Part shown: positions 8,162 through 25,430 of the stretch, piece by piece
Layout of the letters: the number at the start of each line of letters is the position of its first letter
Numbering within the stretch: position 1 is the stretch's first letter
NCBI RefSeq assembly: GCF_008189525.1
Contig: NZ_CP043314.1
Span: forward strand, 90,001-122,000
Source: Candidatus Saccharimonadota bacterium
GTDB lineage: Bacteria; Pseudomonadota; Alphaproteobacteria; CAJXXZ01; 1604HC
DNA length: 32,000 nucleotides
Reading direction: 5' to 3'
Made by a program: the position numbers and the translations under genes
Notes under the pieces: model-generated
Seen by the model: the letters and a program-made list of their open reading frames with translations, nothing else
What the model was told of the DNA's origin: nothing
Database searches by the model: none

Positions 8162-8174
8162 AAAATTTTAGAAT

Positions 8175-8200
8175 TTCAATGTTCCACGTGGAACATTGAA
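8175..8200. repeat. perfect 26-bp palindrome, copy 1 of 2, function unknown
   Basis: TTCAATGTTCCACGTGGAACATTGAA is self-complementary about the 8187/8188 centre. It begins 14 nt after the rplQ stop. The 20-bp core AATGTTCCACGTGGAACATT is identical to the copy at 8701-8720. Confidence 0.85.
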
Positions 8201-8698
8201 GTAATTTTACTTATTTATTTGTAAGTTTTTTTCGTTTTTTTTGTTATCTAAATGTTTTAAATGTCTTTTGATATTATTGAGAGGCTATACTTTTCCTGTA
8301 AACTAAATTTATATAGATTTTTTATATTATGACTTATTGAGAACTAAATGATATATTGTTTATGATTTTTTCTATATCTATAATTTATTATATTAAGAGA
8401 TATTTATGTTCATACATTGTTGAATTAAATGGAAAACACTGAATTTTTCTGGATCATTATAAAGAAAATATGATATTTTATTAGAAACTTGTAAATTTTT
8501 TAATAAAAAACTTATTCATTTAGATTATTGAATTATAAAGGGCTTAATTTTAGTATTTATTTTTTTTATATGGAGATATTTATGTTGCTAAAGATTAAGA
8601 GCAGATTTTTTAAAGAAACTACTATTTTCTATGATGATATTTTTAGTTTCCTTGCTTGTTTTTATAGATAAAAATCATAAAGTATTTTTGCTCTTTTA

Positions 8699-8722: not shown

Positions 8723-9255
8723 CTTTGTTTAAAGTCAGGCTTTAAATATGGTTCGTAAATATACAAAGGTTCTTTCAATTTTAAAGCTTTGATTAGTATT
8801 GTGTATCCTATATTTTCTATTACGTTTGTTTTGAAAGTATCATTTTTATCCATAGAGTTGTATGTAATATCTTTATTCAACTCTTCATTCTTTTTTACTT
8901 GCCAGTTTTCAAAGTAATGCAATATAGTGGCTTTATTTAGTTTGATTATAATTGGACTTGGGATTATTTCATCTACAGAAACATTGTTACAAATAATATT
9001 CGGATGGCTTGTTTTTATAGCCATTACAGTTGCAAATGCTATTCTTATACTAGAGAATGAGCCTGGACCTCTTAAAAAAGAAATTCTATTTATTTCACTT
9101 AATGTTATTTTTTCTTCTTGCAATGCATTTGATATTTCTTGTACAAGATTTGTTCTTGCGTTGCTGATTTTTTTAGAATATTTCTTTGTATGGTTTAAAA
9201 AGATTTCTATCACAAAATCTTTATTTATATAAAATAGAACTATAGAGTACATCAA
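8719..9255 (-). CDS. tsaB: tRNA t6A37 modification protein TsaB (YeaZ-like), short form
   Basis: LSEINRISFLRGPGSFSSIRIAFATVMAIK matches the TsaB signature (E. coli [30 protein letters not shown]). The product is 178 aa against about 230 aa typical. The N-terminal IDT-type motif is not conserved. Confidence 0.65.
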   Translation of the reverse strand: MMYSIVLFYINKDFVIEIFLNHTKKYSKKISNARTNLVQEISNALQEEKITLSEINRISFLRGPGSFSSIRIAFATVMAIKTSHPNIICNNVSVDEIIPSPIIIKLNKATILHYFENWQVKKNEELNKDITYNSMDKNDTFKTNVIENIGYTILIKALKLKEPLYIYEPYLKPDFKQS

Positions 9256-9321
9256 TTGGATTTTATTATATTTTGAATACTTAGACTACCTATATTTTTT
9301 TTGACAAGTTAATATTGTTCT

Positions 9322-12105
9322 ATGTACAGAAATAAACTAAAAGAAATAGAAAATAAATCTACAGACTTTTGGAATAAATTACAAATAAATAAATCTGAAA
9401 TCTCTAACAAAGAGCCTTATGTTATATTGGATTTTTTTCCTTATCCAAGTGGTTTCGGTTTACATGTGGGTCACACTTTGGGCTACATAAGTACAGATGT
9501 GAAAGCAAGATTTGAAAGAATGAATGATAAAAATGTACTATATGCAATGGGATTTGATTCTTTTGGATTGCCAGCTGAGCAATATGCTATACAAACTAAT
9601 CAACACCCAGAAATAACTACACAGCAGAATATAAGTAATATGAAAAAGCAGCTAAAGGCTTTGGCTTTGAGTCATGATGAGTCAAGAACTTTTAACACAT
9701 CCGATTCTGATTATTATAAATGGACTCAATGGATGTTCCTAAAAATGTATGATAGTTTTTTTGATAATATAGAAGGAAAAGCTAAGCCTATTTCTGATTT
9801 AGTAGAAATGTTAGATTCTGGAAAATTTACAGTAGAAAATGGAAAATTATATAAAGCCTCAAATTCTGTTAAGTCTATAAACAAAGATAAAGAGGAGATA
9901 ATTTCTTCTATGAGACTGGCTTTCTTAGAGGAAGTAGAAGTGAATTGGTGCCCTAAGCTAGGAACCGTACTTTCTAATGAAGAAGTTAAGAATGGCTTAA
10001 GTGAGAGAGGTAATTATCCTGTAGAAAAAAGACCTATGAAGCAGTGGATGATTAGAATTACTTCCTATGCTGAGAGACTTAATAAGCAGTTGGATATTTT
10101 AGATTGGCCGCAAAATATTGTTTCTATGCAGAAAAATTGGATTGGAGAACAAGAAGGAACAGAGATAGTTTTTTCTACTAAAAAAGGTGATATAAAAATA
10201 TTCACGACAAAGCCTCAAACTTTGTATGGAGTTACTTTTTTGGCAATCTCTTCTAAGCATCCAGTTCTAGGTGGAATGAAAGTTGATGAAAACAAATTCA
10301 CAAACATATATGCAAAGCATCCAATAACAAATGAAGAGATTCCTATTTGGACTGCAGATTATGTGTATTCAGATTATGGAACTGGAGCTGTTATGGCTGT
10401 CCCAGCTCATGATCAAAGGGATTTCGAATTTGCAAAAGAGAATGATATAAAAATAAAATCCGTTTTAAAGCCTGATTACAAATGGTTAGAGGAAAATTAC
10501 TTAGGAAGCGTAAAGCAATCTGAGATTATGCTTGAGTGGGAAAATAATCCTGATAAATTTTCTTCTGCATTCGAGGGGCGAGGAAATTTGATAGATATTG
10601 AACAGTTTGATGTAAATGAATTTTTATCTATAAATAAAGAAAAAAATAAGGTTTTAGAGCATTTGCTTGATAAAGGTTTTGCTAAACAGGTAAAAATGTT
10701 CAAGCTCAGGGATTGGCTTTTTAGTAGACAAAGATATTGGGGAGAGCCATTTCCTATTGTTTATGATTCCAGTGGCAAAGTTTTTCCTATTTGTGAAGAA
10801 GAATTACCTGTTGAGCTTCCTAAACAACATGATTTCTCCCCTAGAGAAGGAAATGACCCAGAGGCACCTTTAGGTAGATCAGCAGATTGGAAAAGTGTTA
10901 AAGGTTCTATTGTAAATGGCAAGTTCACTTCTAAAGTAGGAAATGAAGAGTTTACAAGAGAAATTAATACCATGCCAAATTGGGCTGGGTCATGTTGGTA
11001 TTATTTAAGATATATGGATCCTACGAATAAAATGGAATTTATCTCTAAAGAAGCAATGGAATATTGGTCTTCTTCAAAGGTTGGAGCTATAGATATGTAT
11101 GTTGGAGGAGCAGAGCATGCAGTGTTGCATTTATTGTATGCTAGATTTTGGCACATGTTTTTGTTTGATTTAGGGTATGTAAAAAACAAAGAACCTTTTG
11201 ATAAATTACTTAACCCTGGCATGATCACAGCAGATGCGTATAAAAATGGTAATGATGTTTATATTGATATTAATGATGTTGAAATAAGAAATAAGAAAGC
11301 ATATCAGATCAGTACTGGAGAATTATTGGTGATAGAGCCTGGAAAAATGGGCAAAAGGTACAAAAATGGAATTGATCCTCAAGATATGTGTGATAAATAC
11401 GGTATAGATGTTTTTAGGCTTCATGTTATGTACATGGCTCCAATTACTCAAACTAGAAATTGGAACTCTGACAATATAATTGGAATGGAGAGATTTTTGT
11501 CTAAAGTGTATTCTAAAATATCTTCTATAAAATTACTTGATACAGATTCTGACGAAAATCTTATACACAAAACTATAAAATTTGTGACAAAAGAGATGGA
11601 AGAATTCAGATTTAATACTGCTATTGCAACGTTAATAAAATTTGTAAACGATTCTGATAGTATTTCTCTATCTACTGGTTTAAGTTTTTTGAAAATGCTA
11701 TTTCCATTTGCGCCTCATTTATCAGAATATTTATATCAGTTGCATAGAAATAATCTAAGTATCTTTGATGAGGTTCCTGATCAGCACAAAGAAGGATTAG
11801 ATTCAGATTTGATTGACGAAATAAAAAACAAATCAATATGTATGTCTAAATGGCCAGAATACGACGATTCTAAAACTAAGAATCTATATATGGAAATGCC
11901 TATTACAATCAATGGTAGATTAAGAGATAAAATAAATGTTCCAGTTGATTTAGATGAATCTGAAATAGAGAAGCTTGTTATGGATAGAGAAAAAATTAAA
12001 TCTTTTGTTGCTGGGAAGAATATAAGAAAAAGTATTGTGATTAAGAAGAAAGATCCTAAAGACCCAGATAGGTTGATTAGTATGATTTGTAATTTAGTTA
12101 TATAA
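9322..12105 (+). CDS. leuS: leucyl-tRNA synthetase
   Basis: It has the class I HIGH-type motif PYPSGFGLHVGHTLGY and the KMSKS-type motif GKMGKRYKNGIDP. RDWLFSRQRYWGEPFPIV and the CP1 editing motif AVPAHDQRDFEFA are also present. The N-terminus YRNKLKEIENKSTDFW aligns with E. coli YRPEEIESKVQLHW. Confidence 0.95.
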   Translation: MYRNKLKEIENKSTDFWNKLQINKSEISNKEPYVILDFFPYPSGFGLHVGHTLGYISTDVKARFERMNDKNVLYAMGFDSFGLPAEQYAIQTNQHPEITTQQNISNMKKQLKALALSHDESRTFNTSDSDYYKWTQWMFLKMYDSFFDNIEGKAKPISDLVEMLDSGKFTVENGKLYKASNSVKSINKDKEEIISSMRLAFLEEVEVNWCPKLGTVLSNEEVKNGLSERGNYPVEKRPMKQWMIRITSYAERLNKQLDILDWPQNIVSMQKNWIGEQEGTEIVFSTKKGDIKIFTTKPQTLYGVTFLAISSKHPVLGGMKVDENKFTNIYAKHPITNEEIPIWTADYVYSDYGTGAVMAVPAHDQRDFEFAKENDIKIKSVLKPDYKWLEENYLGSVKQSEIMLEWENNPDKFSSAFEGRGNLIDIEQFDVNEFLSINKEKNKVLEHLLDKGFAKQVKMFKLRDWLFSRQRYWGEPFPIVYDSSGKVFPICEEELPVELPKQHDFSPREGNDPEAPLGRSADWKSVKGSIVNGKFTSKVGNEEFTREINTMPNWAGSCWYYLRYMDPTNKMEFISKEAMEYWSSSKVGAIDMYVGGAEHAVLHLLYARFWHMFLFDLGYVKNKEPFDKLLNPGMITADAYKNGNDVYIDINDVEIRNKKAYQISTGELLVIEPGKMGKRYKNGIDPQDMCDKYGIDVFRLHVMYMAPITQTRNWNSDNIIGMERFLSKVYSKISSIKLLDTDSDENLIHKTIKFVTKEMEEFRFNTAIATLIKFVNDSDSISLSTGLSFLKMLFPFAPHLSEYLYQLHRNNLSIFDEVPDQHKEGLDSDLIDEIKNKSICMSKWPEYDDSKTKNLYMEMPITINGRLRDKINVPVDLDESEIEKLVMDREKIKSFVAGKNIRKSIVIKKKDPKDPDRLISMICNLVI

Positions 12106-13004: not shown

Positions 13005-13903
13005 TTATCTCTTGCTTCTGTATTCTGTGATTTATTATTTGTTAAATTTTTAGCTGTATTATGATTTTCTTTTGTCAAAGAGTTATCATTAAGTAAATCT
13101 TGTTTGTTTTTATATGTATTTGAATCTAAGCTCTTGTTAGAATTCTGATATTTGTTATTTTTTAAATATGAGCTTATTTCATAAATTGTAGGAAAGAAAT
13201 CTGTACTTAAGCTAAATCTACCAAAACAAATTCCATCAAACAAATCTACATAAGGCCATATATTTTCTTTGTTTAAAGATCCTCCATAACATACTTTTCC
13301 TTCTATATTTCTTTCTTTTAATAAGTTCTTTATTTGTTTGAAATCTTCTTCTAATTCATGAATTGGTGCTGCACTTGCTTTGCCTATGTAATGTTTTGGC
13401 TCCAAAATTACAGTTAGTTTATTTATTTGTTTATCACTTAATGATTTGATAAAACTCTTATTTTCTATTAATTTATACAACTCTAAATGATTTTCTACAA
13501 ATATGATTGGAATTAAGTTATTTGTAATAATATCTATAGCATGCTCTGATAAAGAATATTTTTCAGATCTAGTTTCTGAATGTCCACACAAGATATGTGT
13601 ACATAGATCTTTTAGCATTGAGGATGATATATTACCAGTAGAATTCTTACCTACATAATTTGAATTTTGTGCAGATAGAAAAATATTTGAATCTTCTGCT
13701 GTTGGATTATTTTTCTGCTCAGAGTATGTATAGATTGATTTTTTATGATATGAAAAAACTTCATTTAGCATATTTAATGAAACAAAAGGCACAGCAAATA
13801 TATTAGTTATATTGTCTATTTTATTTTGCTTTAAAAAAACATTTAGATCTTGTTCGAAGTTGGGTCTTAAAAACCCTTTCCAGTTTGATATAACAAAAAA
13901 CAC
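13001..13903 (-). CDS. tpiA: triosephosphate isomerase (divergent, with C-terminal low-complexity tail)
   Basis: It has a GTG start. TIM catalytic landmarks are present: ISNWKG (Asn/Lys), ILCGHSETR (His), ILEPKHYIG (Glu) and CYGGSL (phosphate loop). SAQNSNYVGKNSTGNISSSMLKDL aligns with E. coli [25 protein letters not shown]. Confidence 0.8.
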   Translation of the reverse strand: MFFVISNWKGFLRPNFEQDLNVFLKQNKIDNITNIFAVPFVSLNMLNEVFSYHKKSIYTYSEQKNNPTAEDSNIFLSAQNSNYVGKNSTGNISSSMLKDLCTHILCGHSETRSEKYSLSEHAIDIITNNLIPIIFVENHLELYKLIENKSFIKSLSDKQINKLTVILEPKHYIGKASAAPIHELEEDFKQIKNLLKERNIEGKVCYGGSLNKENIWPYVDLFDGICFGRFSLSTDFFPTIYEISSYLKNNKYQNSNKSLDSNTYKNKQDLLNDNSLTKENHNTAKNLTNNKSQNTEARDK

Positions 13904-14048
13904 TAAGTGTATTTTATATAAATATGAACATAATTACAATTTGAATTGTATGTTTGTAATATGTTTTTATAATCAGCAAAGTTAAATTAATTATGTAATT
14001 TTAAAATGAGCTTTTTTATTTCTTCTATATTTATTAAAGTTTCATATA

Positions 14049-14076
14049 TTGATTATTTTTCGATTTTTGCTAGAAT
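14049..14076 (+). promoter_or_regulatory. candidate sigma70-type promoter for tRNA-Glu
   Basis: TTGATT (14049-14054), a 16-nt spacer and TAGAAT (14071-14076) are present, with a TGc extended -10 element at 14068-14070. The -10 ends 8 nt before the mature tRNA 5' end. Confidence 0.45.
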
Positions 14077-14084
14077 GATCATGT

Positions 14085-14157
14085 GCTCCTATCGTCTAGA
14101 GGCCTAGGACGCCACCCTTTCACGGTGGTAGCACGGGTTCGAATCCCGTTAGGAGTG
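14085..14157 (+). tRNA. tRNA-Glu (anticodon UUC)
   Basis: I folded the cloverleaf by hand. The acceptor is GCTCCTA/TAGGAGT (G1-U72 wobble). The D arm is GTCT-AGAGGCCT-AGGAC, as in E. coli tRNA-Glu. The anticodon stem is CCACC/GGTGG with loop CTTTCAC (anticodon TTC at 14119-14121). The variable loop is TAGC and the T arm is ACGGG-TTCGAAT-CCCGT. The discriminator is G, and no CCA is encoded. Confidence 0.9.
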
Positions 14158-14217
14158 CTTTTAATTTAAAATCTCATTTTTTGAATTTTCATTTTTTTTG
14201 CAATTTTAGTGATAGAT

Positions 14218-15156
14218 TTATTTTGTGGAATTTTCTATTTCTCTGATTTTTCTAAGTTTTTCAAAATCTTCATCAGCATGATAAGAAGATCTAGTTAATG
14301 GAGAAGATGAAACTACTAAAAATCCCTTTTGTAAAGCAATGCTTTTATATTCTTTAAAAATTTCTTCAGATATATATTCTTTAACTACATGGTGTTTAGG
14401 GCTGGGTTGTAGATATTGACCTATAGTCATAAAATCTACATTTGCTGCACGAAGATCATCCATTAACTGTATTACTTCTGACATAGTTTCACCCAAACCT
14501 AACATTATTCCTGATTTAGTAAATGTATTTGGATCTAATTTTTTGGCTTCATCAAGTAGTCTGAGTGAATTATAGTAATTAGCTCCGATTCTTACTGTTG
14601 GATAAAGGCTAGGTACAGTTTCTAAGTTGTGATTAAAAACATCTGGTTTAGCTTGCATTACAATTTCTAAGGCACCTTTTTTTCTTAAAAAATCTGGCAC
14701 AAGAATTTCTACAGTAGTTTCTGGGTTCTTTGCTCTAATAGCATGTATTATTTTCTTGTAGTGATTTGCACCACCATCTGGCAAATCATCTCTTGTTACT
14801 GAAGTTACAACTATATGTTTTAGTTTCATATTGAAAACTGTATTTGCTATATTTTCAGGCTCTTCAGGGTCTAATTTTAGAGGTCTTCCGGTTGCGATAT
14901 TGCAAAAAGCACAAGCTCTTGTACATACATTTCCCATTGCTAGTATTGCAGCATGTTTTTTAGACCAACATTCAAGTATGTTAGGACAAGCAGCTTCTTC
15001 GCATACTGTGTGCAGTTTTTTAGTACGCAGCATTTCTTGAAGTTCAGCGCTCATTTGAGTAATTTTGATTCTAGGTTTATATCTTTTACTTAATTGATTA
15101 TCTTGATTTGATTTAGTTTCTTCATTTGGATCTGTTATTTTTATATGAGAAATCAC
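14218..15156 (-). CDS. lipA: lipoyl synthase
   Basis: The N-terminal auxiliary cluster motif is [13 protein letters not shown] and the radical-SAM motif is [13 protein letters not shown]. The product is alignable throughout with E. coli LipA. It has a GTG start. Confidence 0.95.
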
Positions 15157-15271: not shown

Positions 15272-15973
15272 TTACTTTGAATTTATTTTTCTATAAATTA
15301 ATAATCTAGATCCTTCAGGTATATTGTCAGATTTCGCTAAGCTTTTTTGCCCCGCTCCCTTATTAGCTTTTTCATTTACTGCTGTTTTCCTAGATTCATT
15401 ATTAGTTTTTCCATTAGAAAATTGTGTTCTAGGCATTAAAGTAGGAATTTTTTGGCTGTCTTTTTGAGATGTTTTGTGCTTTTTTTTAGGTATATTTTTT
15501 ATATCAAGTGCTTTAGGAGCAAGTCTTGGTTGTGTTGGTGTTTGAATCTGTGAATTCTCTGCAGACTTTCTAATTTCTAAATCTTTTTTAACGCTATCAA
15601 GTATTTTTATTAGAGTTTTATTATCAGGATGTATGCATTCTTTGCGATTTTCATATATATCTATCTTAATAGGTTTTGTTTTTCTGTCACAAAATAGTCC
15701 ATATGCAACAAGGTGATAAGTATCAAGAAGATCTGGGAAGATTATCTCTTGTGGTAAGAGGTGTGGTACATATATTGATGCCATAACTTCATCAGGAATA
15801 TTTGTATATTCTGTGTATAGTTCGCGTACTTCAGAGTAGTTTATATTTTGTGTTGAATAAACTGGCATATAAAATGAAAAAGCTAAGAATAGAAAGCTTA
15901 ATGATTTTCTTGAATTTCGGATATATTTTAAGATCTGATTTTGAGCAAACGTAATATTAAATAATATTTTCAT
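15272..15973 (-). CDS. hypothetical protein with N-terminal signal anchor and Lys-rich disordered tail (ORFan)
   Basis: This is a 233-aa ORF in DNA where stop codons are frequent. It has a hydrophobic segment (SLSFLFLAFSFYMPVYS) near the N-terminus. The C-terminal ~100 aa are K/Q/S/T/P-rich. I recognise no family. Confidence 0.6.
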   Translation of the reverse strand: MKILFNITFAQNQILKYIRNSRKSLSFLFLAFSFYMPVYSTQNINYSEVRELYTEYTNIPDEVMASIYVPHLLPQEIIFPDLLDTYHLVAYGLFCDRKTKPIKIDIYENRKECIHPDNKTLIKILDSVKKDLEIRKSAENSQIQTPTQPRLAPKALDIKNIPKKKHKTSQKDSQKIPTLMPRTQFSNGKTNNESRKTAVNEKANKGAGQKSLAKSDNIPEGSRLLIYRKINSK

Positions 15974-16083: not shown

Positions 16084-17475
16084 TTAATTCTCTTTTAGTG
16101 AGATAATTACAAATCTTTGAGCTAAATAGGCTAATTTTGAATAATGTATATTATCTTCTTGTAGGCACATTTTTTCATAGTGTGTTTTTATTTTTCCATC
16201 TTGTCTTTCAAAAACCATTGTATAATTCTCTGTTTTTCCTGATATTAATACATTTCTACTTTCACCGGATTTATGGATAACTATAATTCTAGCCTGCTCT
16301 TGATCATTGCATAGAATTCTGAATATTGAAAATTTTTTCATGTACAAAGCACCTTCTGGCCCTAATATATTTAATGCATATATTAATTTTTCTCTTAATT
16401 CTTTTGTCGTGCCATTAAGTGCTTCTATTTCTGTGCCATTAACTGTTCTTATTTTTACTAGATTAGCAATCCTATCTTTCATTGACTCTATTTCCAGATC
16501 TTTTTTTTCATTACTTTTTTGGGAAAGTCTAAGCGATTCTTCGGAGCTTTTGTGCTGCTTTTCTAGAATATCTATTTGTAATTTAAGCTGTTTTGAGGAT
16601 AATGCAGAGCACTCTTTTTCTGATTTCGTTAGATCTTCTTGTGTTTTGTTTAGCTCTGTTAAGCGTATTTTATCTTTTTCATAAGATTGGTTAAGTTTAG
16701 TTAATTCTTCGATTTGCTTCTTACTTAATTCTATAGATAAGTCTTTTTGTTCATTTCTTAGTTTAGAAACTTCAAGAGCTTTTTCCAGAGCTTCATATCT
16801 TAGTTTTAGTTCCTTAGTTTTTCCAATACTTGATATTTCTAGTACTTTTAGTTTTTGCTCAGCAATTTCTAGCTTTTTTTCTAATACAGTTTTCTCACTT
16901 TTAAGATTAATATTTTCAAGACTTAATTTGTGTTTTTCATTAACGAGATTCTGCTGTTCGCTTAAAAGACTTAAGTTTTGCGTAGATAATTTGACTTGTT
17001 GTTTTGCAAGTGACATACCTTGCTCTGTAAGATTTCCATTTTGTATTACAAGATCTCTATTTTTCTTTGCTAGTTCTAAATCTGCACTTACTTGTTCTAT
17101 TTTTCTTCGTAAGTCTTGTTGTGATGTTGCGAAGGTTAAGTTTGTAGATTCAGAGGCTAAATCCCAGTTAGCAAAATTTATTCCATTTAAATTTATTGCT
17201 TCTCCTTCCTCTCCATCTCTTACACTTGGATCTGCTAATTCTAGTTGTGCTAAATTTTCTGCATTCAATCTCTGAGTTTGTGTTTCATTTTCACTCGATG
17301 TTGTGCTATCAATATTTGTTTGATTATCATTTTTTAGAAACATATCTTCTAGAATATCTTCTATACAAATTGGGGTTGCAGAGCCTGGGTTTGATTCTGA
17401 TAAACTGTTCCCACCCTTTATATAAAATCCATTATATAACATTAGAATAGAAATGATTTTCTTAAAAATATTCAT
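16084..17475 (-). CDS. exported coiled-coil protein, family A paralog A1 (ORFan)
   Basis: This is a 463-aa ORF with RBS AGGAG 7 nt upstream of the ATG. The N-terminus MNIFKKIISILMLYNGFYIKGG is signal-peptide-like. It shares the WDL-S-STN box and the RYxxLE...R(N/H)E(Q/T)KDLS box with A2 and A3. About 250 aa are E/K/L/Q/N-rich and Pro/Gly-poor. Confidence 0.8.
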   Translation of the reverse strand: MNIFKKIISILMLYNGFYIKGGNSLSESNPGSATPICIEDILEDMFLKNDNQTNIDSTTSSENETQTQRLNAENLAQLELADPSVRDGEEGEAINLNGINFANWDLASESTNLTFATSQQDLRRKIEQVSADLELAKKNRDLVIQNGNLTEQGMSLAKQQVKLSTQNLSLLSEQQNLVNEKHKLSLENINLKSEKTVLEKKLEIAEQKLKVLEISSIGKTKELKLRYEALEKALEVSKLRNEQKDLSIELSKKQIEELTKLNQSYEKDKIRLTELNKTQEDLTKSEKECSALSSKQLKLQIDILEKQHKSSEESLRLSQKSNEKKDLEIESMKDRIANLVKIRTVNGTEIEALNGTTKELREKLIYALNILGPEGALYMKKFSIFRILCNDQEQARIIVIHKSGESRNVLISGKTENYTMVFERQDGKIKTHYEKMCLQEDNIHYSKLAYLAQRFVIISLKEN

Positions 17476-17622
17476 TTTTCATCTCCTTTTAAATCGAAGT
17501 TTAGTAAATATACATCATTTTAAGTTAGATAGGATAGTTAAATAACACTGATGTTTTGTTCGACAGTATGTGAAAATATGTATACAGCAGACCTGGAGGG
17601 GGTGATAAGTGTACAAGATATC

Positions 17623-18924
17623 TTATTTGAATTTACAAGAACGAGTAATTAATCCCAATCCATGCCCTGTAATCTCTTTGTAATTCTTAATAAACTCTTC
17701 AAAAATTTCTTTAGATTCTAGTTGTTGTGTGTTTTTCTTATCTTGTAATTTTTCAAATTTATTTCTTTTAGTTAATCCTGAGAACTTACGAATACATTCA
17801 TCTATGAGAGATTCAAAGTACATAAGCCTTTCATTTCTACATTCATAAGTCTGCCATTTCATGGAATAGAGACTTTCTAGCAAAATGAACAGGCTTTTTC
17901 TATGTTTTTTATTTTCTGAGGAAAGTGATTTATATTGATTTGATAAGGATACATATCTATATATAAACCTTTTTATTAGGCCTTCAAGTTTTATTTCCAT
18001 ATATCTCATTCTCTCTGAATGACTTTCTGCTTCAGATTGTGTTTTTGTTTTATATGCTGAATACTCTGCCTCTTTTTGTTTGAGTTTTAGTGCATCTTGG
18101 AATGAATTAAATTTAAGCATTTTAATTTCTCTGTCATGATTCCTAGATAAACTCTGTAAAGTTTCATCATGCTCAGATGTTCTTTGGTTGTATCTTTCTG
18201 TAAGACTCTTTAATTCTATTTTTAGTTTTTCTACTTCAATTTCTCTGGATTTGTTTTGTTCAGTTAAGCTTTTGAGGTTTTGTTTCATTTCTTCAGTAGA
18301 TAGGTCTTTTTGTTCATGTCTTTGTGAGGAAATATATAAAGCTTTTTCTAAAGAACTATATCCTTGCTTTAATTCTGTAGACTTTTCTTTGTTTGCTTCC
18401 TTTAGTTCCTCATATTGTCTTTTGAAAACTTCCAGCTGATTTTTCAAGGATGTATTTTCACTTTGTAATTTACAATTCTTGATATCTAGTTCACATACTT
18501 TGTTTTCAGAGTCCTGTAATTTAGAGAGAAGAGTATTATTTTCCTCTTGCTCTTTTATGATTTTTTGTAATTCTTGCTGTAATTCTGCGTACATAGGGTT
18601 TGTTGATGCTGACTCTAAGTCCCAATCTACTAAATCTAAATCTATTTCATCTAACATATTCATTCCACTCAGCTCATCTAAACCACATGAATTCAACTGT
18701 TTTAATTTCGCAGCAGTAAGCATTGGTGAGGTTTTTGTTGGTAGATCAGGAACTGGTGATGCTTCAGCAGCTTTCGATACTTTAGGAATTGATAGTTTTT
18801 CAAATTCATTTGTATCTGATAACTTTTCGAATTCACTTCCACCAAACATTGCATGCAACCCATTGCACAGCATTATCAAGGTAAATATATATATTGTTTT
18901 TTTCATGTTTTTGATCCTTTGCAT
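17623..18924 (-). CDS. exported coiled-coil protein, family A paralog A2 (ORFan)
   Basis: This is a 433-aa ORF with signal peptide MKKTIYIFTLIMLCNGLHAMFGG. An alternative start at 18906 has AAAGGA upstream. Family A boxes are present (VDWDLESASTNP, ELKQGYSSLEKALYISSQRHEQKDLS). The ORF-track start lies 1 nt from the B1 stop. Confidence 0.8.
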   Translation of the reverse strand: MQRIKNMKKTIYIFTLIMLCNGLHAMFGGSEFEKLSDTNEFEKLSIPKVSKAAEASPVPDLPTKTSPMLTAAKLKQLNSCGLDELSGMNMLDEIDLDLVDWDLESASTNPMYAELQQELQKIIKEQEENNTLLSKLQDSENKVCELDIKNCKLQSENTSLKNQLEVFKRQYEELKEANKEKSTELKQGYSSLEKALYISSQRHEQKDLSTEEMKQNLKSLTEQNKSREIEVEKLKIELKSLTERYNQRTSEHDETLQSLSRNHDREIKMLKFNSFQDALKLKQKEAEYSAYKTKTQSEAESHSERMRYMEIKLEGLIKRFIYRYVSLSNQYKSLSSENKKHRKSLFILLESLYSMKWQTYECRNERLMYFESLIDECIRKFSGLTKRNKFEKLQDKKNTQQLESKEIFEEFIKNYKEITGHGLGLITRSCKFK

Positions 18925-18925
18925 T

Positions 18926-20317
18926 TTATATAAAGTTTTTTATGTGAAGGCGTTGATCAGGTTTCTTATTTGCAATAAAAGTAATTCCTGTATTAGCATT
19001 TAGAACTTCTTTTAGATAAAGCTGTTTTCCAACTATGTTATTTCCCATAGCTTCGTTTAATTTAATAGAAATAATCATTATAGAAAGGAGCTTATTCCAT
19101 GCTGACTCTTTGTCTTTAGTGTCAAGTTTTAAGTCGAAAGCATCTATAAATTCAGTTGCTAGCTCTTTCTTTACTGAACAACTAGATTCTTTAAAAATAC
19201 TTGCAACTTTATCCCCTACTAGAGCAGCATCTGGCCTTGAAGCTTCTTTTAGTATTGCTCTATAAAAAGATAACTGATCTAAAGCGCCATTTAAATCTTC
19301 ATCTTTTCTGCGCATACTTCTATCACTATTTTTTATTTCAGATTCTAGTTTTGCATTTTCGACTTTGAATTCCAAAGCATTCTCTAGCTTGCTTTCTAGC
19401 GCATTTACTTTTTCTCTAAGTTTTTCAATTTCAGTGTCTTTAGATGACTCTGCTGATTTTAAATTTTGAACAACTTCTTTTAAGCTTGAAATTTCCATTG
19501 CTTGACTCAAAGATTTATTATGTGATTTTTCAGAATCTTCTTGTAAGTTTTTTATTGTACATTTTGCTTCTTCTAAAAGTTTATTGAGATGTAAAATTCT
19601 TTCTGTATTATGCTTTTCATTACACTCTTTTGATGTAGATTCTTTTACTAAACTTAATACTGCTTCTTGCTTTTCAGATTTTACAGACTCAAGCTCTAAT
19701 TCCTTAGAATTTAAATTTTTCTCTAATTTCTCTAGACTAGATTCTGCTTTTTCTATTGCTACACCTGAACATTCTAATCTAGCTCTTTTATCAGCAAGTT
19801 CTTTTATAGCAAATGCAAGCTTTTCTTTTTCAGAAAGTAGTTCTTGGTTTGAAATTTCTTTTTCATTAAACCTTTTATCTTTTTCTTTTGATAATTCTGC
19901 GTAAGACTCTCTTTCTTTTTTAAGTGATTCGGATACCGTATCATTTAATGCTTTATTTGAGCTTCTTAGGTCTCGATTCATATCAGATAGATTTAAAACT
20001 GCTTGTTGTTGAGTTTCAAGAAGTTGTCTAGTCATTGTAAGTTTGCAGTGCATATTTTGTAATTTACATTTCGCAATTTGTGCGATTTCCATACAAATAT
20101 GCTTATCTTTTTCAGTTTCTATTTTATCAAGCCAGGCATTTATATTTATATGCGCAGAACTCATCATAGTTCCTGTAGATGACACTGATACAGCGGTCAT
20201 TGTTTCATATTTTTCAGAGCTAGACAGGTCACCTGATTCCATGCTATGGATTTCGCCTGGCATAGCATTTATCATATTACATAGTGCTAACAGAGTTATG
20301 TATTTCTTTACATTCAT
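18926..20317 (-). CDS. exported coiled-coil protein, family B paralog B1 (ORFan)
   Basis: This is a 463-aa ORF with signal peptide MNVKKYITLLALCNMINAMPGE. It is alignable by eye with B2 over the coiled-coil part and a C-terminal non-coiled module (…GNNIVGKQLYLKEVL…). Confidence 0.8.
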   Translation of the reverse strand: MNVKKYITLLALCNMINAMPGEIHSMESGDLSSSEKYETMTAVSVSSTGTMMSSAHININAWLDKIETEKDKHICMEIAQIAKCKLQNMHCKLTMTRQLLETQQQAVLNLSDMNRDLRSSNKALNDTVSESLKKERESYAELSKEKDKRFNEKEISNQELLSEKEKLAFAIKELADKRARLECSGVAIEKAESSLEKLEKNLNSKELELESVKSEKQEAVLSLVKESTSKECNEKHNTERILHLNKLLEEAKCTIKNLQEDSEKSHNKSLSQAMEISSLKEVVQNLKSAESSKDTEIEKLREKVNALESKLENALEFKVENAKLESEIKNSDRSMRRKDEDLNGALDQLSFYRAILKEASRPDAALVGDKVASIFKESSCSVKKELATEFIDAFDLKLDTKDKESAWNKLLSIMIISIKLNEAMGNNIVGKQLYLKEVLNANTGITFIANKKPDQRLHIKNFI

Positions 20318-20500
20318 TTATTCTTACCTTTAATCAACCTAACAGCTTTAACAAAATTAAGTTTGTTAAAATTACAGCACAAAATAAACAAAAATAAAAC
20401 GATTACTCATTTTCAATCTATAAAAAATCCGTTTTCAAGTTTCATTTTGCTAATGTTGATTAACTGATTCTGCAAGCATTTTCGTAATTAAGACTCTGCT

Positions 20501-21499
20501 TCATTTTATGTTTTGTGATGAAAACAATTTAACTGCAGAAGGATTTTCAGCCATCAATTGCTTAACTTTAAAAAGATTAAAACTGTTTATTAATTTGTCA
20601 TAAGTTTTTGATTCTTTGATTAGTTTTAGAAAACTTTTAATGGTTTTTTCTTTATCATTATCTATCTTACTATCTAGTGATTTTTCTTTTAAATATTCCA
20701 TAAATAAATCTATGGAAATGTTACTAAGATCAGATAGAGAAACTTTATATAATTCACAAGCTGTTTTATTAACATAAGCTTCAGAGTTTGCAATTTTTAG
20801 TTCAAATTTAAGCAGTTCGTCATTTTTTCTAGCTTCAGAACTTTGCTGATTATATTTTGATTCTAATATATTTAGTTCAGCTTGTAATGATTCAGCCTTA
20901 ATTTCGTGCAGTTCTTTTAGAGAGGTTTGTTTTTCTAGTTTTTCTCTCATTTCTGCTATTGAAAGGTCTTTTGTTTCATGTCTTTTAGTTGAGGTAGAAA
21001 GAGACCTTTCCAAGCTGTTATATCTTTCTTTTAGCTCCCTAGTTTTTACACTATTTTCTTCTTCCAGATACTTAACTTTCTCTTGAGCATTTTTTAGTTT
21101 TATATGTAATAAATCATTCTCAGTTTTTAGATCAGTATTTTCCATATTTAATTTATGATTTTCATTTTCAAGCTTTTGTAACTTAGATAAATCATTTACA
21201 TTTTGTGCTAATAGATCTGAGCTTTCTTTTTGGTGATTTAATGCATTTTGTAAATCTTTTTGTAATGCATCAGAGGTAAGGTTTGTAGAAGTAGAGTCTA
21301 AATCCCAGTTTCTGGTTAATTCAAACAACTCATTATGCAGCTTAGATAAATTTTGGGCAGTAAGCTCAGATTTCATTTGTACAGATGCCAAGGAATTAGG
21401 TGAACTGCTCATGCTTGGTATACTCCCATTCCCACTTGGCATTGCACTTAATGAGCTGCAGATAGAAATTAATGTGATGTATTTCCTGATTTTTCTCAT
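20501..21499 (-). CDS. exported coiled-coil protein, family A paralog A3 (ORFan)
   Basis: This is a 332-aa ORF with signal peptide MRKIRKYITLISICSSLSAMPSGN. Family A boxes are present (RNWDLDSTSTNL, ELKERYNSLERSLSTSTKRHETKDLS). Its start lies 7 nt from the B2 stop. Confidence 0.8.
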   Translation of the reverse strand: MRKIRKYITLISICSSLSAMPSGNGSIPSMSSSPNSLASVQMKSELTAQNLSKLHNELFELTRNWDLDSTSTNLTSDALQKDLQNALNHQKESSDLLAQNVNDLSKLQKLENENHKLNMENTDLKTENDLLHIKLKNAQEKVKYLEEENSVKTRELKERYNSLERSLSTSTKRHETKDLSIAEMREKLEKQTSLKELHEIKAESLQAELNILESKYNQQSSEARKNDELLKFELKIANSEAYVNKTACELYKVSLSDLSNISIDLFMEYLKEKSLDSKIDNDKEKTIKSFLKLIKESKTYDKLINSFNLFKVKQLMAENPSAVKLFSSQNIK

Positions 21500-21506
21500 T
21501 TATTTT

Positions 21507-23468
21507 TTAATTCCTAATTAATCCTGCAACTTGAGATAAATCTGCAGTGGTAAATTTCTCCCCAGGCTTTGCGTTTGCTTTAAACAGAATATCTTGTGAG
21601 CTGCCAAATATTTCTTTCAAAAATAGGATATGCCCAACTATATTTTCTCCTGTGCATTGATCTAAAGACTTACATACCAACATTAGAGTTACAGATCTAT
21701 ATATTGACTTATTAATCTCTCCCTTTTTATCAAGATTTAGATTAAAAGAACGTATGAACTTAGATGCAACACAATCTTTTTTAGAATAACTTGAGTTTTC
21801 ATATATTTCTTTAACCTTTTGGAATGCATAACTTGGCTGTGAATTTTCAGCTGTTTCCAGTAATTTATCATATAGAGATACTTTTTCTTTTTTATTTGTT
21901 AATTTCTTTTGTATTTCCAATAATCTAGATTTCAATGTTTTATTTTCTTCTTTTAGTGCAGGTGCAATGCTTGGTATTTTTGCAACCTCTGCTTCTAGCT
22001 TTGTGTTTTTTGCTTTATATTCATTTAATTCAGCTTTTAGCATATCTATTTCAGATTCCTGTGACATACATTTAGACTCAAGGCCAGATAATTTAGTAAC
22101 TGTTTTTAGAATTGTTTCATCTGCAGATTCTTTATCTTTGGATAGGCTTGCTATTGTGCTATTTGCTTCTTCTAGTAATTTCTGAAGATAAGAGTTTTTC
22201 TCATTCATATTTCTTGTATTACATTCATTTGCTGTAGATTCTTTTGTGAGATCTAATTCCATTGAATGCTTTGCAGATTTTACAGCTTCAAGCTCAGATT
22301 CTTTAGAGTTTATACTTCTTTCTAATTTTTCTATATCAGACTCTGCTTTTGCTCTTGCTTCAGTTGAGTATTTCAGATTTGCATTTTTATCAGCAAGATC
22401 TTCTCTAGCATCTGCAAGTTTCTTTTTTTCTGCCATAAGATTCTCTTTGTCTATTAGTCTGCTGGTTTTTTCTTCTGATAATTCTGCAGCTCTTTTTCTC
22501 TCTTCTTCTTGAGCTTTAGATGCATTTTCTTGTGATTTAGCAGCCATATCAGCTAATTTAACAGTTGCTTCAGAATTTGCATTTATTGCTATTTGTTGGC
22601 CTGCAATAAATTGTTTTAATGATTCTATATATCTGTCTTTTTTGCCAAATCTTTTGTTTGAAAATTGAATTATTTCTGTGACAAGCTCTGTTTCTTCAGG
22701 ATTGTTGCATCGTTCTAACCAGCATCTTATTCTTTTAGAAGAATAAAGTGCTTCCATAGATCTTTGTGAGATGCGGGACAAAGAAGACTTATGAGACAGT
22801 GCATCCCAATCCATCTGAGGTAATGCTATGCCTGTACGAGAAGAAGCAACAGATGTTCCGGATCTTCTACTGGACTTTGTTCGTTCTGTTAAGTTTGCTT
22901 GCTGCATTTGCATTTGCATTTGCATCTGTTGCATCTGCATTTGTAGTTGGGCGATATTATCCTGCACTGAAGATGAAACAGATCCACTTTTTACTGAACT
23001 ACTAGATACAGATTTTACGCTTGATCTATTTGCATTAGGAGCTAAAACTAACTCTCTTGCATTTCCTAAACTTGCTGTAGGGGCTTCAGGTTCTACAGGT
23101 ATTTCTGCACGATTGCCTACATCACTAGTCTCTGACATTGTGACAAAAGTGCTAGCTGTGCTATATGCTGCAGATCCAACTTTATGAGCAGTGGATGAAG
23201 CAACAGAAAGTATTGCTGATCCAGCTCTGCTTAGCTGTGACCTAGTTTGACTAGCTTGCGTTTCTGTATACAAATCTGTTGAAGTGCTTGATCTAGAGGA
23301 TGTTGGTCCATTTTCAGGTACTTGCTCTATTTTCTCAGATTCAGATCTCAATTCGCATGAAGTGCTAGAGTCATGTTCTGACTGTATAGAGTTTGTCTCT
23401 ATGTCTGCTTCTATAGATGCGTAAATACTACTGCATAATATAGAAAGAATTAAAAACTTCTTTTGCAT
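21507..23468 (-). CDS. exported coiled-coil protein, family B paralog B2 with S/T-rich N-terminal region (ORFan)
   Basis: This is a 653-aa ORF with signal peptide MQKKFLILSILCSSIYASIE. About 190 aa are S/T-rich low-complexity sequence that includes QMQMQQMQMQMQMQQ. The rest is a coiled coil and C-terminal module alignable with B1 (…GENIVGHILFLKEIF…). Confidence 0.8.
   Translation of the reverse strand: MQKKFLILSILCSSIYASIEADIETNSIQSEHDSSTSCELRSESEKIEQVPENGPTSSRSSTSTDLYTETQASQTRSQLSRAGSAILSVASSTAHKVGSAAYSTASTFVTMSETSDVGNRAEIPVEPEAPTASLGNARELVLAPNANRSSVKSVSSSSVKSGSVSSSVQDNIAQLQMQMQQMQMQMQMQQANLTERTKSSRRSGTSVASSRTGIALPQMDWDALSHKSSLSRISQRSMEALYSSKRIRCWLERCNNPEETELVTEIIQFSNKRFGKKDRYIESLKQFIAGQQIAINANSEATVKLADMAAKSQENASKAQEEERKRAAELSEEKTSRLIDKENLMAEKKKLADAREDLADKNANLKYSTEARAKAESDIEKLERSINSKESELEAVKSAKHSMELDLTKESTANECNTRNMNEKNSYLQKLLEEANSTIASLSKDKESADETILKTVTKLSGLESKCMSQESEIDMLKAELNEYKAKNTKLEAEVAKIPSIAPALKEENKTLKSRLLEIQKKLTNKKEKVSLYDKLLETAENSQPSYAFQKVKEIYENSSYSKKDCVASKFIRSFNLNLDKKGEINKSIYRSVTLMLVCKSLDQCTGENIVGHILFLKEIFGSSQDILFKANAKPGEKFTTADLSQVAGLIRN
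22903..22943. repeat. imperfect hexanucleotide repeat (TGCATT/TGCATC)n encoding (Q-M)n in B2
   Basis: The plus strand reads TGCATT TGCATT TGCATT TGCATC TGT TGCATC TGCATT. It lies inside the B2 CDS, and its unit length keeps the reading frame. Confidence 0.8.
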
Positions 23469-23590: not shown

Positions 23591-24850
23591 TTATACTGAA
23601 ATATCTTCTAAGCTATAGCTAGCTTTAGCTTCAGTTTTATAGCCTGAATGCATATTTTTTTGATCATATAGATAGGTAGCATAAGTCACCATAGCTGCAT
23701 TATCGCTACAAAACTCAGGTTTTGGTACGAATATTTTTTTCCCATTTTTTTCTGCAAAATCACGTAATTTGTTCTTTATAAACATGTTAGAGGCGACACC
23801 TCCTACAAAAACCCAATTTTTTATTTTACAGTTTTCTGATGTGTTGTTTGAGTTATTTATTTCTTGTTCTTTGTTGTTATGAAATTTACTTCCCAATGCA
23901 TTGCGTAGTCTCTCTATTAAAGATTCAGATATAGCATATTGAAGTGCATAACATAGATTCTGTTTGTACTTTTCTGACTTGTCGCTTGATTCCCATTTTC
24001 TTATTACAGCAGTTTTTAATCCTGAGAATGAAAAATTACAACTTTTATCATTTTTCAGGGGCACTGGAAGGTTGAAATTTGGATTCTTAAGGCTAAATGA
24101 ATTTGGATTTTTGCTAAATTCGCTTTGCAAGGCTAGTTGCTCTATATGTTTGCCAGCTGGGTTCTTTAGTCCTATCTTTCTGCCAAATTTATCCAGTATT
24201 TCTCCCACAGCATCATCTAATGATGTTCCTAATACTGAATATTTTCCTAGATCAGTTGCTATAGCTAGCAGTGTATGCCCTCCAGATGCCAATATTACTC
24301 CATAAGGAAAGTCCAATCCTGTGAAGGAGATGCTTTCATTTTTAGAGAAGTTATTATCTGAGCCATTTTGTAAATTATTATTATTATTTAGAGTTTTTCC
24401 TGCTGATTGTTTGTTTGAATTTATATGTTCATTTTGTACATTTATTGAATTATAAGCATGCTTCCATTTCGCTACTAGCAAATGAGCTTCCAAGTGGTTC
24501 ACAGAAACAAAAGGTATATTTAAGGACCAAGCTAAAGTTTTGGCAAAGGTTACTCCAACAGTAAGGCTTCCTAAAAGACCAGGCCCTACTGTAGCTCCTA
24601 TGCAGTGTAGATCATTAGGTTTTATATTTGATTCTTTCAAACATTCTCTAACCATTCCTGGTAATTTAGTCATATGATCTCTTGATGCATATTCTGGTAT
24701 TACTCCGCCAAAATCGGAGTAATCATGTGTTATGGTTTTATTGCATATGCATTTTTCATTGTTAAATATTGCTACTGTTGTATCATCACAGCTAGTTTCT
24801 ATTCCTAAGTAGAATTTATTATACACACTAAATTCTATATCGTTTTGCAT
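23591..24850 (-). CDS. tsaD: tRNA N6-adenosine threonylcarbamoyltransferase TsaD (Gcp/Kae1 family) with low-complexity insertions
   Basis: GIETSCDDT, the metal-binding HLEAHLL, ILASGGHT and VGGVASN motifs occur in the canonical order. The product is 419 aa against about 340 typical, because of N/S/K-rich inserts. Confidence 0.9.
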   Translation of the reverse strand: MQNDIEFSVYNKFYLGIETSCDDTTVAIFNNEKCICNKTITHDYSDFGGVIPEYASRDHMTKLPGMVRECLKESNIKPNDLHCIGATVGPGLLGSLTVGVTFAKTLAWSLNIPFVSVNHLEAHLLVAKWKHAYNSINVQNEHINSNKQSAGKTLNNNNNLQNGSDNNFSKNESISFTGLDFPYGVILASGGHTLLAIATDLGKYSVLGTSLDDAVGEILDKFGRKIGLKNPAGKHIEQLALQSEFSKNPNSFSLKNPNFNLPVPLKNDKSCNFSFSGLKTAVIRKWESSDKSEKYKQNLCYALQYAISESLIERLRNALGSKFHNNKEQEINNSNNTSENCKIKNWVFVGGVASNMFIKNKLRDFAEKNGKKIFVPKPEFCSDNAAMVTYATYLYDQKNMHSGYKTEAKASYSLEDISV

Positions 24851-24929: not shown

Positions 24930-25430
24930 TTAGTCATCTGACTCTTCTTTTGTTTTAGGTTTATCTTCTACATATACTTCTAATTCTTGCATTAAGAGTA
25001 TTCTTTCTGAAACTAAATGATCAATTTGACCGCTCAATTTAGCATTTGCTTTGTAGAGAGTTCTGCATGCGCGTTCTATCTTATTTCTTTCCAGCTTCAG
25101 AATATCTCTATCTTGCTCTATGTGCATTGCGCTTGTAATAATAGATGTGTTTCTTGCCTTTAATAGGCTTACTTCTTGTATTAATGTGTTTATCAAGCTC
25201 TGAGAAGTTTTGTTGATTTCAGCTGCAGAATCTGTCTGTGTAGATGAGTCAGATTTTTTAATTTCTTTTAGAGGAATATTTGACCTTGCAGTGTCAGAAT
25301 CATATCTTGAAGAAAAAAACACTTTGTCATTTACAATGTAATTAACAATATAGTCTGAATCCTGCTCTTTGGGAGAATTTTGCAAAACATCTCCAGAGAA
25401 GCAACATAACAAACAAGATAGAAATTTCAT
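24930..25430 (-). CDS. hypothetical small protein with Cys-rich hydrophobic N-terminus and C-terminal coiled-coil-like segment (ORFan)
   Basis: This is a 166-aa ORF. It starts MKFLSCLLCCFSGD and contains a YIVNYIVN duplication. The C-terminal half (LINTLIQEVSLLKARN...LSGQIDHLVSERILLMQELEVY) is heptad-like. I recognise no family. Confidence 0.6.
   Translation of the reverse strand: MKFLSCLLCCFSGDVLQNSPKEQDSDYIVNYIVNDKVFFSSRYDSDTARSNIPLKEIKKSDSSTQTDSAAEINKTSQSLINTLIQEVSLLKARNTSIITSAMHIEQDRDILKLERNKIERACRTLYKANAKLSGQIDHLVSERILLMQELEVYVEDKPKTKEESDD

Follow-up and report, generated by a model that had tools for sequence, protein, structure and literature searches.

Within the 32,000-nucleotide stretch of DNA analyzed here (hereafter, the window), five consecutive minus-strand genes next to tsaD appear to encode a pair of lineage-restricted, exported coiled-coil protein families, A and B, that were previously undescribed. 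Protein-database records of the five products identify the organism as Candidatus Nesciobacter abundans, a diderm alphaproteobacterium of the Holosporaceae, and the B1 protein is also present, unchanged, on the 616,058-bp record OY490516.1 (assembly GCA_960610765.1). We favor, with a probability of roughly 0.4, a reading in which the two families are confined to one Nesciobacter lineage and their products are exported rods, made as B + A pairs, that act in the cell envelope or at the host interface. The initial annotation, made from the sequence alone, had proposed that these proteins were new. In agreement with this, all five carry the GenBank label 'hypothetical protein' (QEK38932-QEK38936, exact matches), each is a singleton at 90% identity among ~15 billion proteins, and no published description of them was found in the literature on the symbiont. 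The general kind, proteins that are private to an obligate intracellular bacterium and either secreted or periplasmic, was already recognized and had been flagged collectively by the genome authors.

Five genes form a tandem B-A, B-A, A array

The gene order in the direction of transcription is tsaD, B2, A3, B1, A2, A1, a 233-aa orphan and lipA. The array comprises B2 (21507..23468, 653 aa, QEK38936), A3 (20501..21499, 332 aa, QEK38935), B1 (18926..20317, 463 aa, QEK38934), A2 (17623..18924, 433 aa from the first ATG or 427 aa from the ATG at 18906, QEK38933) and A1 (16084..17475, 463 aa, QEK38932), the last being a lone A without a B partner; all five open reading frames (ORFs) and the intervals between them are given on the minus strand. 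These coordinates match exactly those first annotated, and the proposed arrangement of two paralogous families as B-A, B-A and then A was borne out by BLASTP (E 1e-14 to 7e-49). Plus-strand ORFs (18479-19003, 16307-16684, 22828-23187 and others, up to 174 aa) were dismissed as antisense shadows of a GAA/AAG/CTT-rich coding strand.

B2 and A3 are separated by 7 nt from stop to start (21500..21506), and B1 and A2 by either 1 nt (A2 start at 18924) or 19 nt (start at 18906; junction 18907..18925). The spacer between cassette 1 (B2-A3) and cassette 2 (B1-A2) is 183 nt (20318..20500), and that between A2 and A1 is 147 nt (17476..17622). The spacings originally given, 7, 183, 1 and 147 nt, follow from the coordinates, except that the B1-A2 value is probably 19 nt. 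The second ATG of A2 (Met7, nt 18906) is its more probable start because an AAGGA Shine-Dalgarno-like element lies 8-9 nt upstream of that codon, because GenBank calls the 427-aa form, and because the resulting N-terminus, MKKTIYIF..., aligns better with those of the other four proteins; the gap would therefore be 19 nt instead of 1, which is still tight. For A3, an AGGAA sequence lies inside the last B2 codons, ~12 nt before the A3 ATG, and A1 has an AGGAG Shine-Dalgarno element. In the 183-nt spacer, an AT-rich hairpin and the T-run after it (~20381-20433) could together be a weak terminator, and there is a promoter-like match (9/12) at 20438-20409. Rfam returned a tRNA-Glu gene only.

Both families are old, constrained and joined by an N-terminal module

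B1 and B2 had been aligned by eye, and BLASTP recovered the same relationship at 32% identity over 414 aa (E 7e-49). Their most conserved part at the DNA level is a 297-nt core (direct repeat D1; 19535..19831, minus strand) that is 70% identical to its B2 partner at 22134-22430. Among the A proteins, A2 and A3 are the closest pair (E 3e-28), followed by A1/A3 (E 1e-20) and A1/A2 (E 1e-14); both members of the closest pair are linked to a B gene, which fits duplication of a B-A unit. The two signature boxes attributed to A1-A3 are both real. Box 1 is a 64-nt direct-repeat family (D2, 69-77% identity) that encodes NWDLxSxSTN and its flanks, with minus-strand copies at 21247..21310 in A3, 18564-18627 in A2 and 17106-17169 in A1. 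Box 2, defined by protein alignment, reads ELKxRYxSLE..S..R(H/N)E(Q/T)KDLS. However, homology among the A proteins is limited to the signal peptide, linker and rod (the N-terminal two thirds) and ends before the C-terminal 80-140 aa, which are mutually unrelated. We also noted that the B2 linker contains DWDALSHKSS (aa 219-228, window 22783-22812), in which 4/10 residues are identical to the A box NWDLxSxSTN; this segment is a B2-specific insertion and the match may be due to chance.

The N-terminal likeness reported between A3 and B1 is statistically sound (BLASTP, E 1e-5) but covers only the first ~49 aa, and hhalign of A against B aligned the signal peptide alone. Distant homology of A and B beyond the N-terminal ~50 aa was thus rejected, and an export module of ~50 residues appears to be common to, or exchanged between, two otherwise different families. 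The ratio of nonsynonymous to synonymous substitution rates (dN/dS; Nei-Gojobori, aligned codons) was 0.29-0.57 with dS near saturation, and the copies are therefore old and retained under purifying selection. The five genes have a GC content of 0.29-0.34, and of 0.18-0.24 at third codon positions (GC3), matching the housekeeping genes of the window in a genome of ~30% GC. Recent horizontal transfer was rejected because both values equal those of the housekeeping genes. Together, the dN/dS values and native-looking base composition demonstrate that these are real, constrained genes.

The N-termini resemble Sec signal peptides

Signal peptides were called by heuristic criteria (n-region charge, hydrophobic core and small-x-small site) and not by SignalP. 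By this heuristic, the Sec-type signal peptides initially proposed for all five proteins were recovered as signal-peptide-like, of Sec type I, although the cleavage site of A1 is atypical. Each N-terminus has an n-region charge of +2 to +4 and a hydrophobic core of 11-14 residues that begins at residue 5-8, and small-x-small sites fall at residues 17-25 (INA↓MP, LSA↓MP, LHA↓MF in A2 and IYA↓SI in B2). The predicted signal peptide of A3 is MRKIRKYITLISICSSLSA, cut before MPS; that of B1 is MNVKKYITLLALCNMINA, cut before MPG; and that of A2 is MKKTIYIFTLIMLCNGLHA, cut before MFG. B2 has the signal-peptide-like N-terminus MQKKFLILSILCSSIYA, with a predicted cut before SIE. The combination of n-region, core and site was not present in ~20 ribosomal, tRNA-synthetase and metabolic proteins of the window.

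Transmembrane-like 19-residue windows were borderline only, occurred in A2 and B2 and overlapped the signal cores; cores of 11-14 residues are too short for a transmembrane helix. No lipobox ([LVI][ASTVI][GAS]C) occurs within the N-terminal 35 residues of the five proteins, and we thus rejected the idea that they are lipoproteins. Four of the five have a conserved Cys residue in the h-region, where it follows L or I instead of G, A or S. The five proteins likewise contain no Walker A, LPXTG, prepilin or Tat motif. These features suggest that all five are exported through Sec and that at least four are cleaved.

Predicted long helical rods carry divergent ends

The E/K/L-rich, Pro/Gly-poor composition described at the outset was evident in the numbers (E, K, L and S each ~9-15%; Pro 0.6-1.8%; Gly 0.6-3.7%), and the heptad-register score of the rods of all five proteins was 3-9 times the shuffled level. 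AlphaFold2 models were built for A3 and B1 from alignments of the paralogues only. The A3 model consists of a signal helix, a disordered linker (aa 17-47), a short helix (48-63), the NWDLDSTSTN loop (64-73), one unbroken 176-residue helix at 74-249 and then a small, low-confidence C-terminal helical region. Its mean predicted local distance difference test score (pLDDT) is 69.8, with 10-residue block means of 89-98 across residues 81-220. In the B1 model, a signal helix and a disordered linker (aa 18-58) precede helices at 69-181 and 188-329 (113 + 142 residues), and the mean pLDDT is 60, with block means of ~70-85 along the rod except for a dip at the 181-192 break. The long coiled-coil rods first proposed are therefore consistent with both the modeled helices and the heptad scores, which support a layout of signal peptide plus long coiled-coil rod. 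The predicted mature proteins are 36-70 kDa.

The two families differ in how they end. B1 is predicted to finish in a helical domain of short, low-confidence helices at 343-442. The B C-terminal domain spans aa 343-463 of B1 by alignment (18929..19291, minus strand; B2 equivalent ~21510-21872), is not coiled-coil and contains the motifs FIxxFxLxLDxK and GxNIVGxxLxLKE...FxANxKP. B2 has the same conserved C-terminal domain after a helical rod at ~aa 265-545 and a ~230-aa Ser/Thr/Gln-rich low-complexity linker that includes (QM)n; it has ~190 more Ser/Thr/Gln-rich low-complexity residues than B1. The C-terminus that follows the coiled-coil rod of A2 is unique to A2, and the ~120 aa that follow the rod of A1 are unique to A1 and not coiled-coil-like. 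Within the B2 linker, a TGCATT hexamer repeat (window 22903-22943, ~6.3 copies, 78% matches) encodes the QMQMQQMQMQMQMQQ run and is a potential site of slipped-strand length variation; the B2 protein is identical in both available assemblies.

Database searches

The initial annotation recognized no named family, enzyme motif or secretion component in the five proteins, and searches of Pfam, NCBIfam, PHROGs, PADLOC, PDB and Foldseek led to the same result. Pfam gave no hit at E up to 0.1. A YadA_anchor-type barrel was not found, and the C-termini of A3 and B1 are helical by AlphaFold2, which argues against a trimeric autotransporter or type V fiber. Pfam, NCBIfam, PHROGs and PADLOC gave only sub-threshold coiled-coil matches and no family membership. 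Among these matches, SMC/Rad50-like profiles (TIGR02168/TIGR02169) scored 13-24 bits against cut-offs of 567-729, with similarity confined to the coiled-coil arms and no Walker A motif. The Mycoplasma helix-rich protein profile TIGR04523 scored 30 bits for B1 and 17 bits for B2 against a cut-off of 270, a match of composition, and below-threshold matches to JetC, ATG16 and Nuf2 profiles were set aside as coiled-coil noise. Gram-positive M or M-like fibrils were rejected because the proteins have no LPXTG and no Pfam hit and come from a diderm alphaproteobacterium. S-layer, flagellin and phage tail-fiber proteins were rejected because nothing significant was found in Pfam, NCBIfam or PHROGs and the Foldseek and PDB searches were null, the Foldseek models being confident in the rods only. 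Sequence searches of PDB with both family profiles and with the C-terminal 138 aa of A1 gave no match. No eukaryote-like domain or host-protein similarity was detected with Pfam or the B-profile HMMER search.

When the B core profile was run with HMMER exhaustively against 1.84 billion representative proteins, B1 and B2 were the only matches at E <= 0.001, a strong negative for the B family. A word-index search with B1 as the query returned B1 alone and missed B2, though B2 is in the collection. With the A profile, a word-index search found A1 and A3 only; because A2 was missed though it is in the collection, this negative is weak for the A family. Coiled-coil queries fill the 8000-candidate list, which makes word-index negatives unreliable for such proteins. 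Degenerate-pattern scans found neither family in GTDB genomes, a collection in which the source genome was also not found and which probably does not include it, and neither A nor B in JGI metagenomes.

Relatives and neighboring orphan genes

The A/B array belongs to ~10 kb of lineage-specific sequence around tsaD. The closest TsaD proteins, from Cytomitobacter genomes and one metagenome-assembled genome (MAG), are only 43-45% identical, which marks N. abundans as phylogenetically isolated; fast-evolving rods could be unrecognizable at that distance. Searches of the tsaD neighborhoods of Candidatus Cytomitobacter primus, C. indipagum and MAG CP060235 by tblastn, blastp and hhalign against ORFs and orphans revealed no A or B, suggesting that the array expanded in the Nesciobacter lineage alone. 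In Cytomitobacter and the MAG, tsaD lies between the ATP-synthase operon and HIT-comEC and is divergent from HIT-comEC. The Nesciobacter genes prfA-comEC-HIT-(two orphans)-tsaD-(A/B array)-orphan-lipA-tpiA all run in one direction. The difference in gene order points to an inversion or rearrangement where orphans accumulated. TsaD itself (window 23591-24850, minus strand) is 419 aa long, compared with 327-334 aa in the closest relatives. Three Asn/Ser/Lys-rich insertions (~aa 133-176, 247-258 and 324-342) account for the extra length, and the protein is otherwise well aligned (43% identity to C. primus TsaD).

Three minus-strand orphans flank the array and tsaD, and none has homology to A or B. 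In the 426-aa orphan (25626-26906), a hydrophobic segment at the N-terminus is followed by an S/T/D/K-rich linker, then a coiled coil and, at the C-terminus, a hydrophobic tail, GNPIGSFFNTVTLGLVGAVMN. The 166-aa orphan (24930-25430) starts with MKFLSCLLCCFSG and contains a coiled coil, and the 233-aa orphan (15272-15973) belongs to no family.

The relatives have private genes of their own at this locus. C. primus (OX638200.1) encodes a private family of three minus-strand genes, Cp194 (8773-9357), Cp747 (16930-19173) and Cp652 (6535-8493). Cp194 and Cp747 flank tsaD and have a common 58-aa N-terminus (67% identity), MLKKFIIMLLITSESYA followed by MENEE, as well as a common YYRSQIKEDRADDFAHITYMQ box and coiled coil; Cp747 and Cp652 have common AAEQY-type helical repeats with faint SNAP/TPR hits. 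The MAG (CP060235.1) encodes a 322-aa protein (13350-14318, minus strand) that adjoins comEC and combines a signal-peptide-like N-terminus with a coiled coil, for which Pfam gave a weak CCDC39 hit. A comparable slot holds a 494-aa orphan in C. primus and the 426-aa orphan in N. abundans. The three, among which no sequence homology was detected, may be positional counterparts that evolve fast.

Proposed role and alternatives

N. abundans is a cytoplasmic symbiont of Diplonema japonicum, a marine diplonemid that also houses C. primus (PMC13598402); a 2025 review uses the name 'Candidatus Ignotibacter abundans' and gives the host as D. aggregatum (PMC11909080), while the genome note and original papers give D. 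japonicum. These symbionts have genomes of 605-632 kb with energy metabolism nearly gone (bioRxiv 10.1101/719211), and the streamlined genome first suspected from the sequence is indeed 616 kb (10.1101/719211). Hypothetical genes make up 22-50% of the genes in these symbionts, many of them putatively secreted, and N. abundans has 116 hypothetical proteins and 44 proteins with predicted signal peptides (bioRxiv 10.1101/719211). It keeps Sec (secABDEFY and ffh), a remnant of the type II secretion (T2SS) and type IV pilus (T4P) systems consisting of the four genes gspD, gspF, pilB and pilQ (Table S3, 10.1101/719211), and a modified type VI secretion system (bioRxiv 10.1101/719211); its Tol-Pal system is down to ybgF (10.1101/719211). 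Electron microscopy (EM) shows rod-shaped symbionts with a distinct periplasm, lying against or engulfed by the host mitochondrion (PMC5845003; PMC13462478). This setting is a plausible place where the A/B proteins might act. The genome authors expected that interactions with the host and mitochondrion would run through secreted hypothetical proteins, and proposed effectors acting on mitochondria or the cytoskeleton (10.1101/719211).

In the reading we favor, a Sec signal peptide would direct each protein to translocation by the retained SecYEG/SecA and would be cleaved after small-x-Ala in at least four of the five. The mature form would consist of a flexible Ser/Thr/Glu-rich linker, a 170-260-residue rod (~17-26 nm) and a small C-terminal domain, conserved in B and different in every A. 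Each B would be co-transcribed and co-made with the downstream A, and the rods would probably associate. We infer co-transcription because the gaps within units are only 7 nt and 1 or 19 nt, as opposed to 147-183 nt between units. The proteins would then act outside the cytoplasm, either in the periplasm, at the surface of the cell or, after passage through the retained GspD/PilQ secretin, in the host cytosol, presumably as a structural or host-interface layer; anchoring of the symbiont to the host mitochondrion is one possibility.

Several observations weigh against this reading. Rod lengths are unlike (176 aa in A3 and 113 + 142 aa in B1), A1 has no B partner and thus A proteins cannot strictly need a co-made B, and tight spacing is common in a 616-kb genome with a long run of co-directional genes. 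The spacers offer no clear sign of transcriptional units: the 183-nt spacer folds no better than its shuffles (z = 0.57), the 147-nt spacer (17476..17622) has no significant structure (z = 0.91), and promoter scans found sites no more numerous than expected by chance or in shuffles. A1 has a hydrophobic core without an (I/L)-x-A site (YIKGGNS), the best candidate being GNS↓L, and no outer-membrane anchor, lipobox or known secretion signal for outer-membrane passage was found in the five proteins. Finally, with the A3 and B1 models Foldseek found nothing in PDB or BFVD at E <= 0.001, and because only the rods were confidently modeled, these negatives say little about the C-terminal domains.

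That no route across the outer membrane was found leads to a different view, in which the proteins never leave the periplasm, where they would polymerize into a filament or spacer and give the envelope its shape or stiffness in a CrvA/CrvB-like manner, with no direct host contact, perhaps making up for the nearly lost Tol-Pal. With a Sec signal peptide alone, a protein gets only as far as the periplasm, the periplasm is prominent in these symbionts, Tol-Pal is reduced to ybgF, and the adjacent, paired signal-peptide/coiled-coil genes resemble the CrvA/CrvB layout. We consider such a scaffold possible, if doubtful, because the exhaustive B-profile search found no periplasmic filament homologue, variable C-termini and rapid divergence are more typical of host-facing proteins, and no periplasmic filament is reported in the EM papers cited above (PMC5845003; PMC13462478). 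The same divergence, with lineage-specific sequences and variable C-terminal ends, would suit independent secreted effectors that each reach the host cytosol through the T2SS/T4P secretin or in outer-membrane vesicles, act singly and mimic eukaryotic coiled-coil tethers, SNARE-like proteins or cytoskeleton binders, with B-A adjacency a by-product of duplication. A1 occurs without a B, gspD and pilQ are kept, the Holosporaceae member Holospora releases periplasmic orphan proteins into the host by secretion (PMC9866348; PMC11909080), and effectors that target the mitochondrion or cytoskeleton are what the genome authors propose (10.1101/719211). However, no eukaryote-like domain or host-protein similarity was detected, the four-gene T2SS may not work, and the B-A unit and its tight spacing were kept over a long divergence (saturated dS), which hints that pairing matters; we thus regard independent effectors as unlikely.

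The atypical cleavage site of A1 and the Cys conserved in the hydrophobic core of four of the five proteins raise the question of whether the N-termini are uncleaved signal-anchors that tether each protein to the inner membrane with its rod in the periplasm, where the positive-inside rule places the rod either way. Cores of 11-14 residues are short for a membrane span, and four of the five proteins have a good (I/L)-x-A site right after the core, making this arrangement improbable. That the ORFs are decaying, functionless or mis-called, or that they encode cytoplasmic SMC/Rad50-like chromosome proteins, is largely refuted and has only a very slim chance of being correct: although no homologues were found in the searches and weak SMC, Rad50 and JetC matches exist, there are five intact ORFs of 332-653 codons with dN/dS <1 and conserved motifs, the SMC-type scores (13-24 bits versus 567-729) involve arms only and no Walker A, and an export-type N-terminus misfits a cytoplasmic role. 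A bolder version of the host-interface idea is that A and B form a heteromeric coiled-coil surface fiber that tethers the bacterium to the mitochondrion or induces wrapping, in which the variable A C-termini would provide alternative heads and the conserved B C-terminal domain would form the base. We treat this as a long shot; if true, it would be a bacterial-built organelle tether that is homologue-free elsewhere.

Returning to exported rods made as B + A pairs, their interest lies in what this genome has kept. Five paralogous, apparently exported proteins take up ~1.2% of a 616-kb genome that shed almost all metabolism, and they would represent ~5/44 of the signal-peptide proteins reported for N. 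abundans. This symbiont is pressed against, and sometimes enclosed by, the single mitochondrion of its host, from which it is thought to steal ATP. The A/B proteins are thus concrete candidates for components of the symbiont-host interface or of an unusual envelope, providing a candidate list rather than a mechanism.

Comparison with known systems

The five proteins resemble SMC, Rad50, JetC and TIGR04523 proteins in having long antiparallel or extended coiled-coil arms that give weak profile matches. They differ in score (13-30 bits versus 270-729), in lacking ATPase heads, a hinge and Walker A, and in their export-type N-terminus. Chlamydial Inc proteins, Legionella coiled-coil effectors and streptococcal M and M-like proteins are lineage-specific, fast-evolving proteins with long coiled coils and variable ends, are often encoded in tandem, and act at the host interface; they rely on type III or type IV secretion signals, bilobed transmembrane hairpins or LPXTG anchors. 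A and B lack such features and instead combine Sec-type N-termini with a Gram-negative cell and no obvious outer-membrane route.

CrvA and CrvB of Vibrio cholerae are encoded by adjacent genes, each have a signal peptide and a coiled coil, and co-assemble into a periplasmic curvature filament. They are the closest mechanistic analogue of a co-expressed B + A pair, a likeness of gene layout. In contrast to CrvA/CrvB, no filament or cell-shape effect is known in Nesciobacter, and the C-terminal domains of A and B are unrelated. Pfam, NCBIfam and the exhaustive HMMER search with B, which had no detectable homologue at all, showed no homology to CrvA/CrvB, and the libraries searched hold no CrvA model.

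The closest functional precedent within the Holosporaceae, by analogy, may be the set of periplasmic proteins of Holospora obtusa, which includes the 89-kDa invasion-tip protein, the 63-kDa PRP1 and proteins of 39, 15 and 5.4 kDa (PMC9866348). Holospora belongs to the same family; its proteins have a putative signal peptide and build up in the periplasm, some are secreted or become exposed to the host, and Sec together with the T2SS has been proposed as the route (PMC9866348). These proteins belong to a specialized infectious form, which Nesciobacter is not known to have; A and B lack the DNA-binding D5_N domain of PRP1, and no B-A cassette is reported for Holospora. Furthermore, the HMMER search of 1.84 billion proteins with the B profile matched only B1 and B2, while A was searched by a word index that missed A2.

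The private C. primus family of Cp194, Cp747 and Cp652 differs from A and B in its other boxes, its AAEQY repeats and its lack of B-A pairing, and hhalign gave a probability of at most 9% beyond the signal peptide. It is nonetheless a similar private expansion that adjoins tsaD and couples a conserved signal peptide to coiled coils or repeats, and its N-terminal style, MLKKFIIMLLITSESYA (then M), is similar to MQKKFLILSILCSSIYA (then S) of B2. Together with the MAG protein, this family suggests that private exported coiled-coil families recur in the clade and that the A/B array is not a singular oddity. The array would thus be an example of reduced endosymbionts inventing private secreted coiled-coil families, as C. 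primus appears to have done in parallel with unrelated genes.

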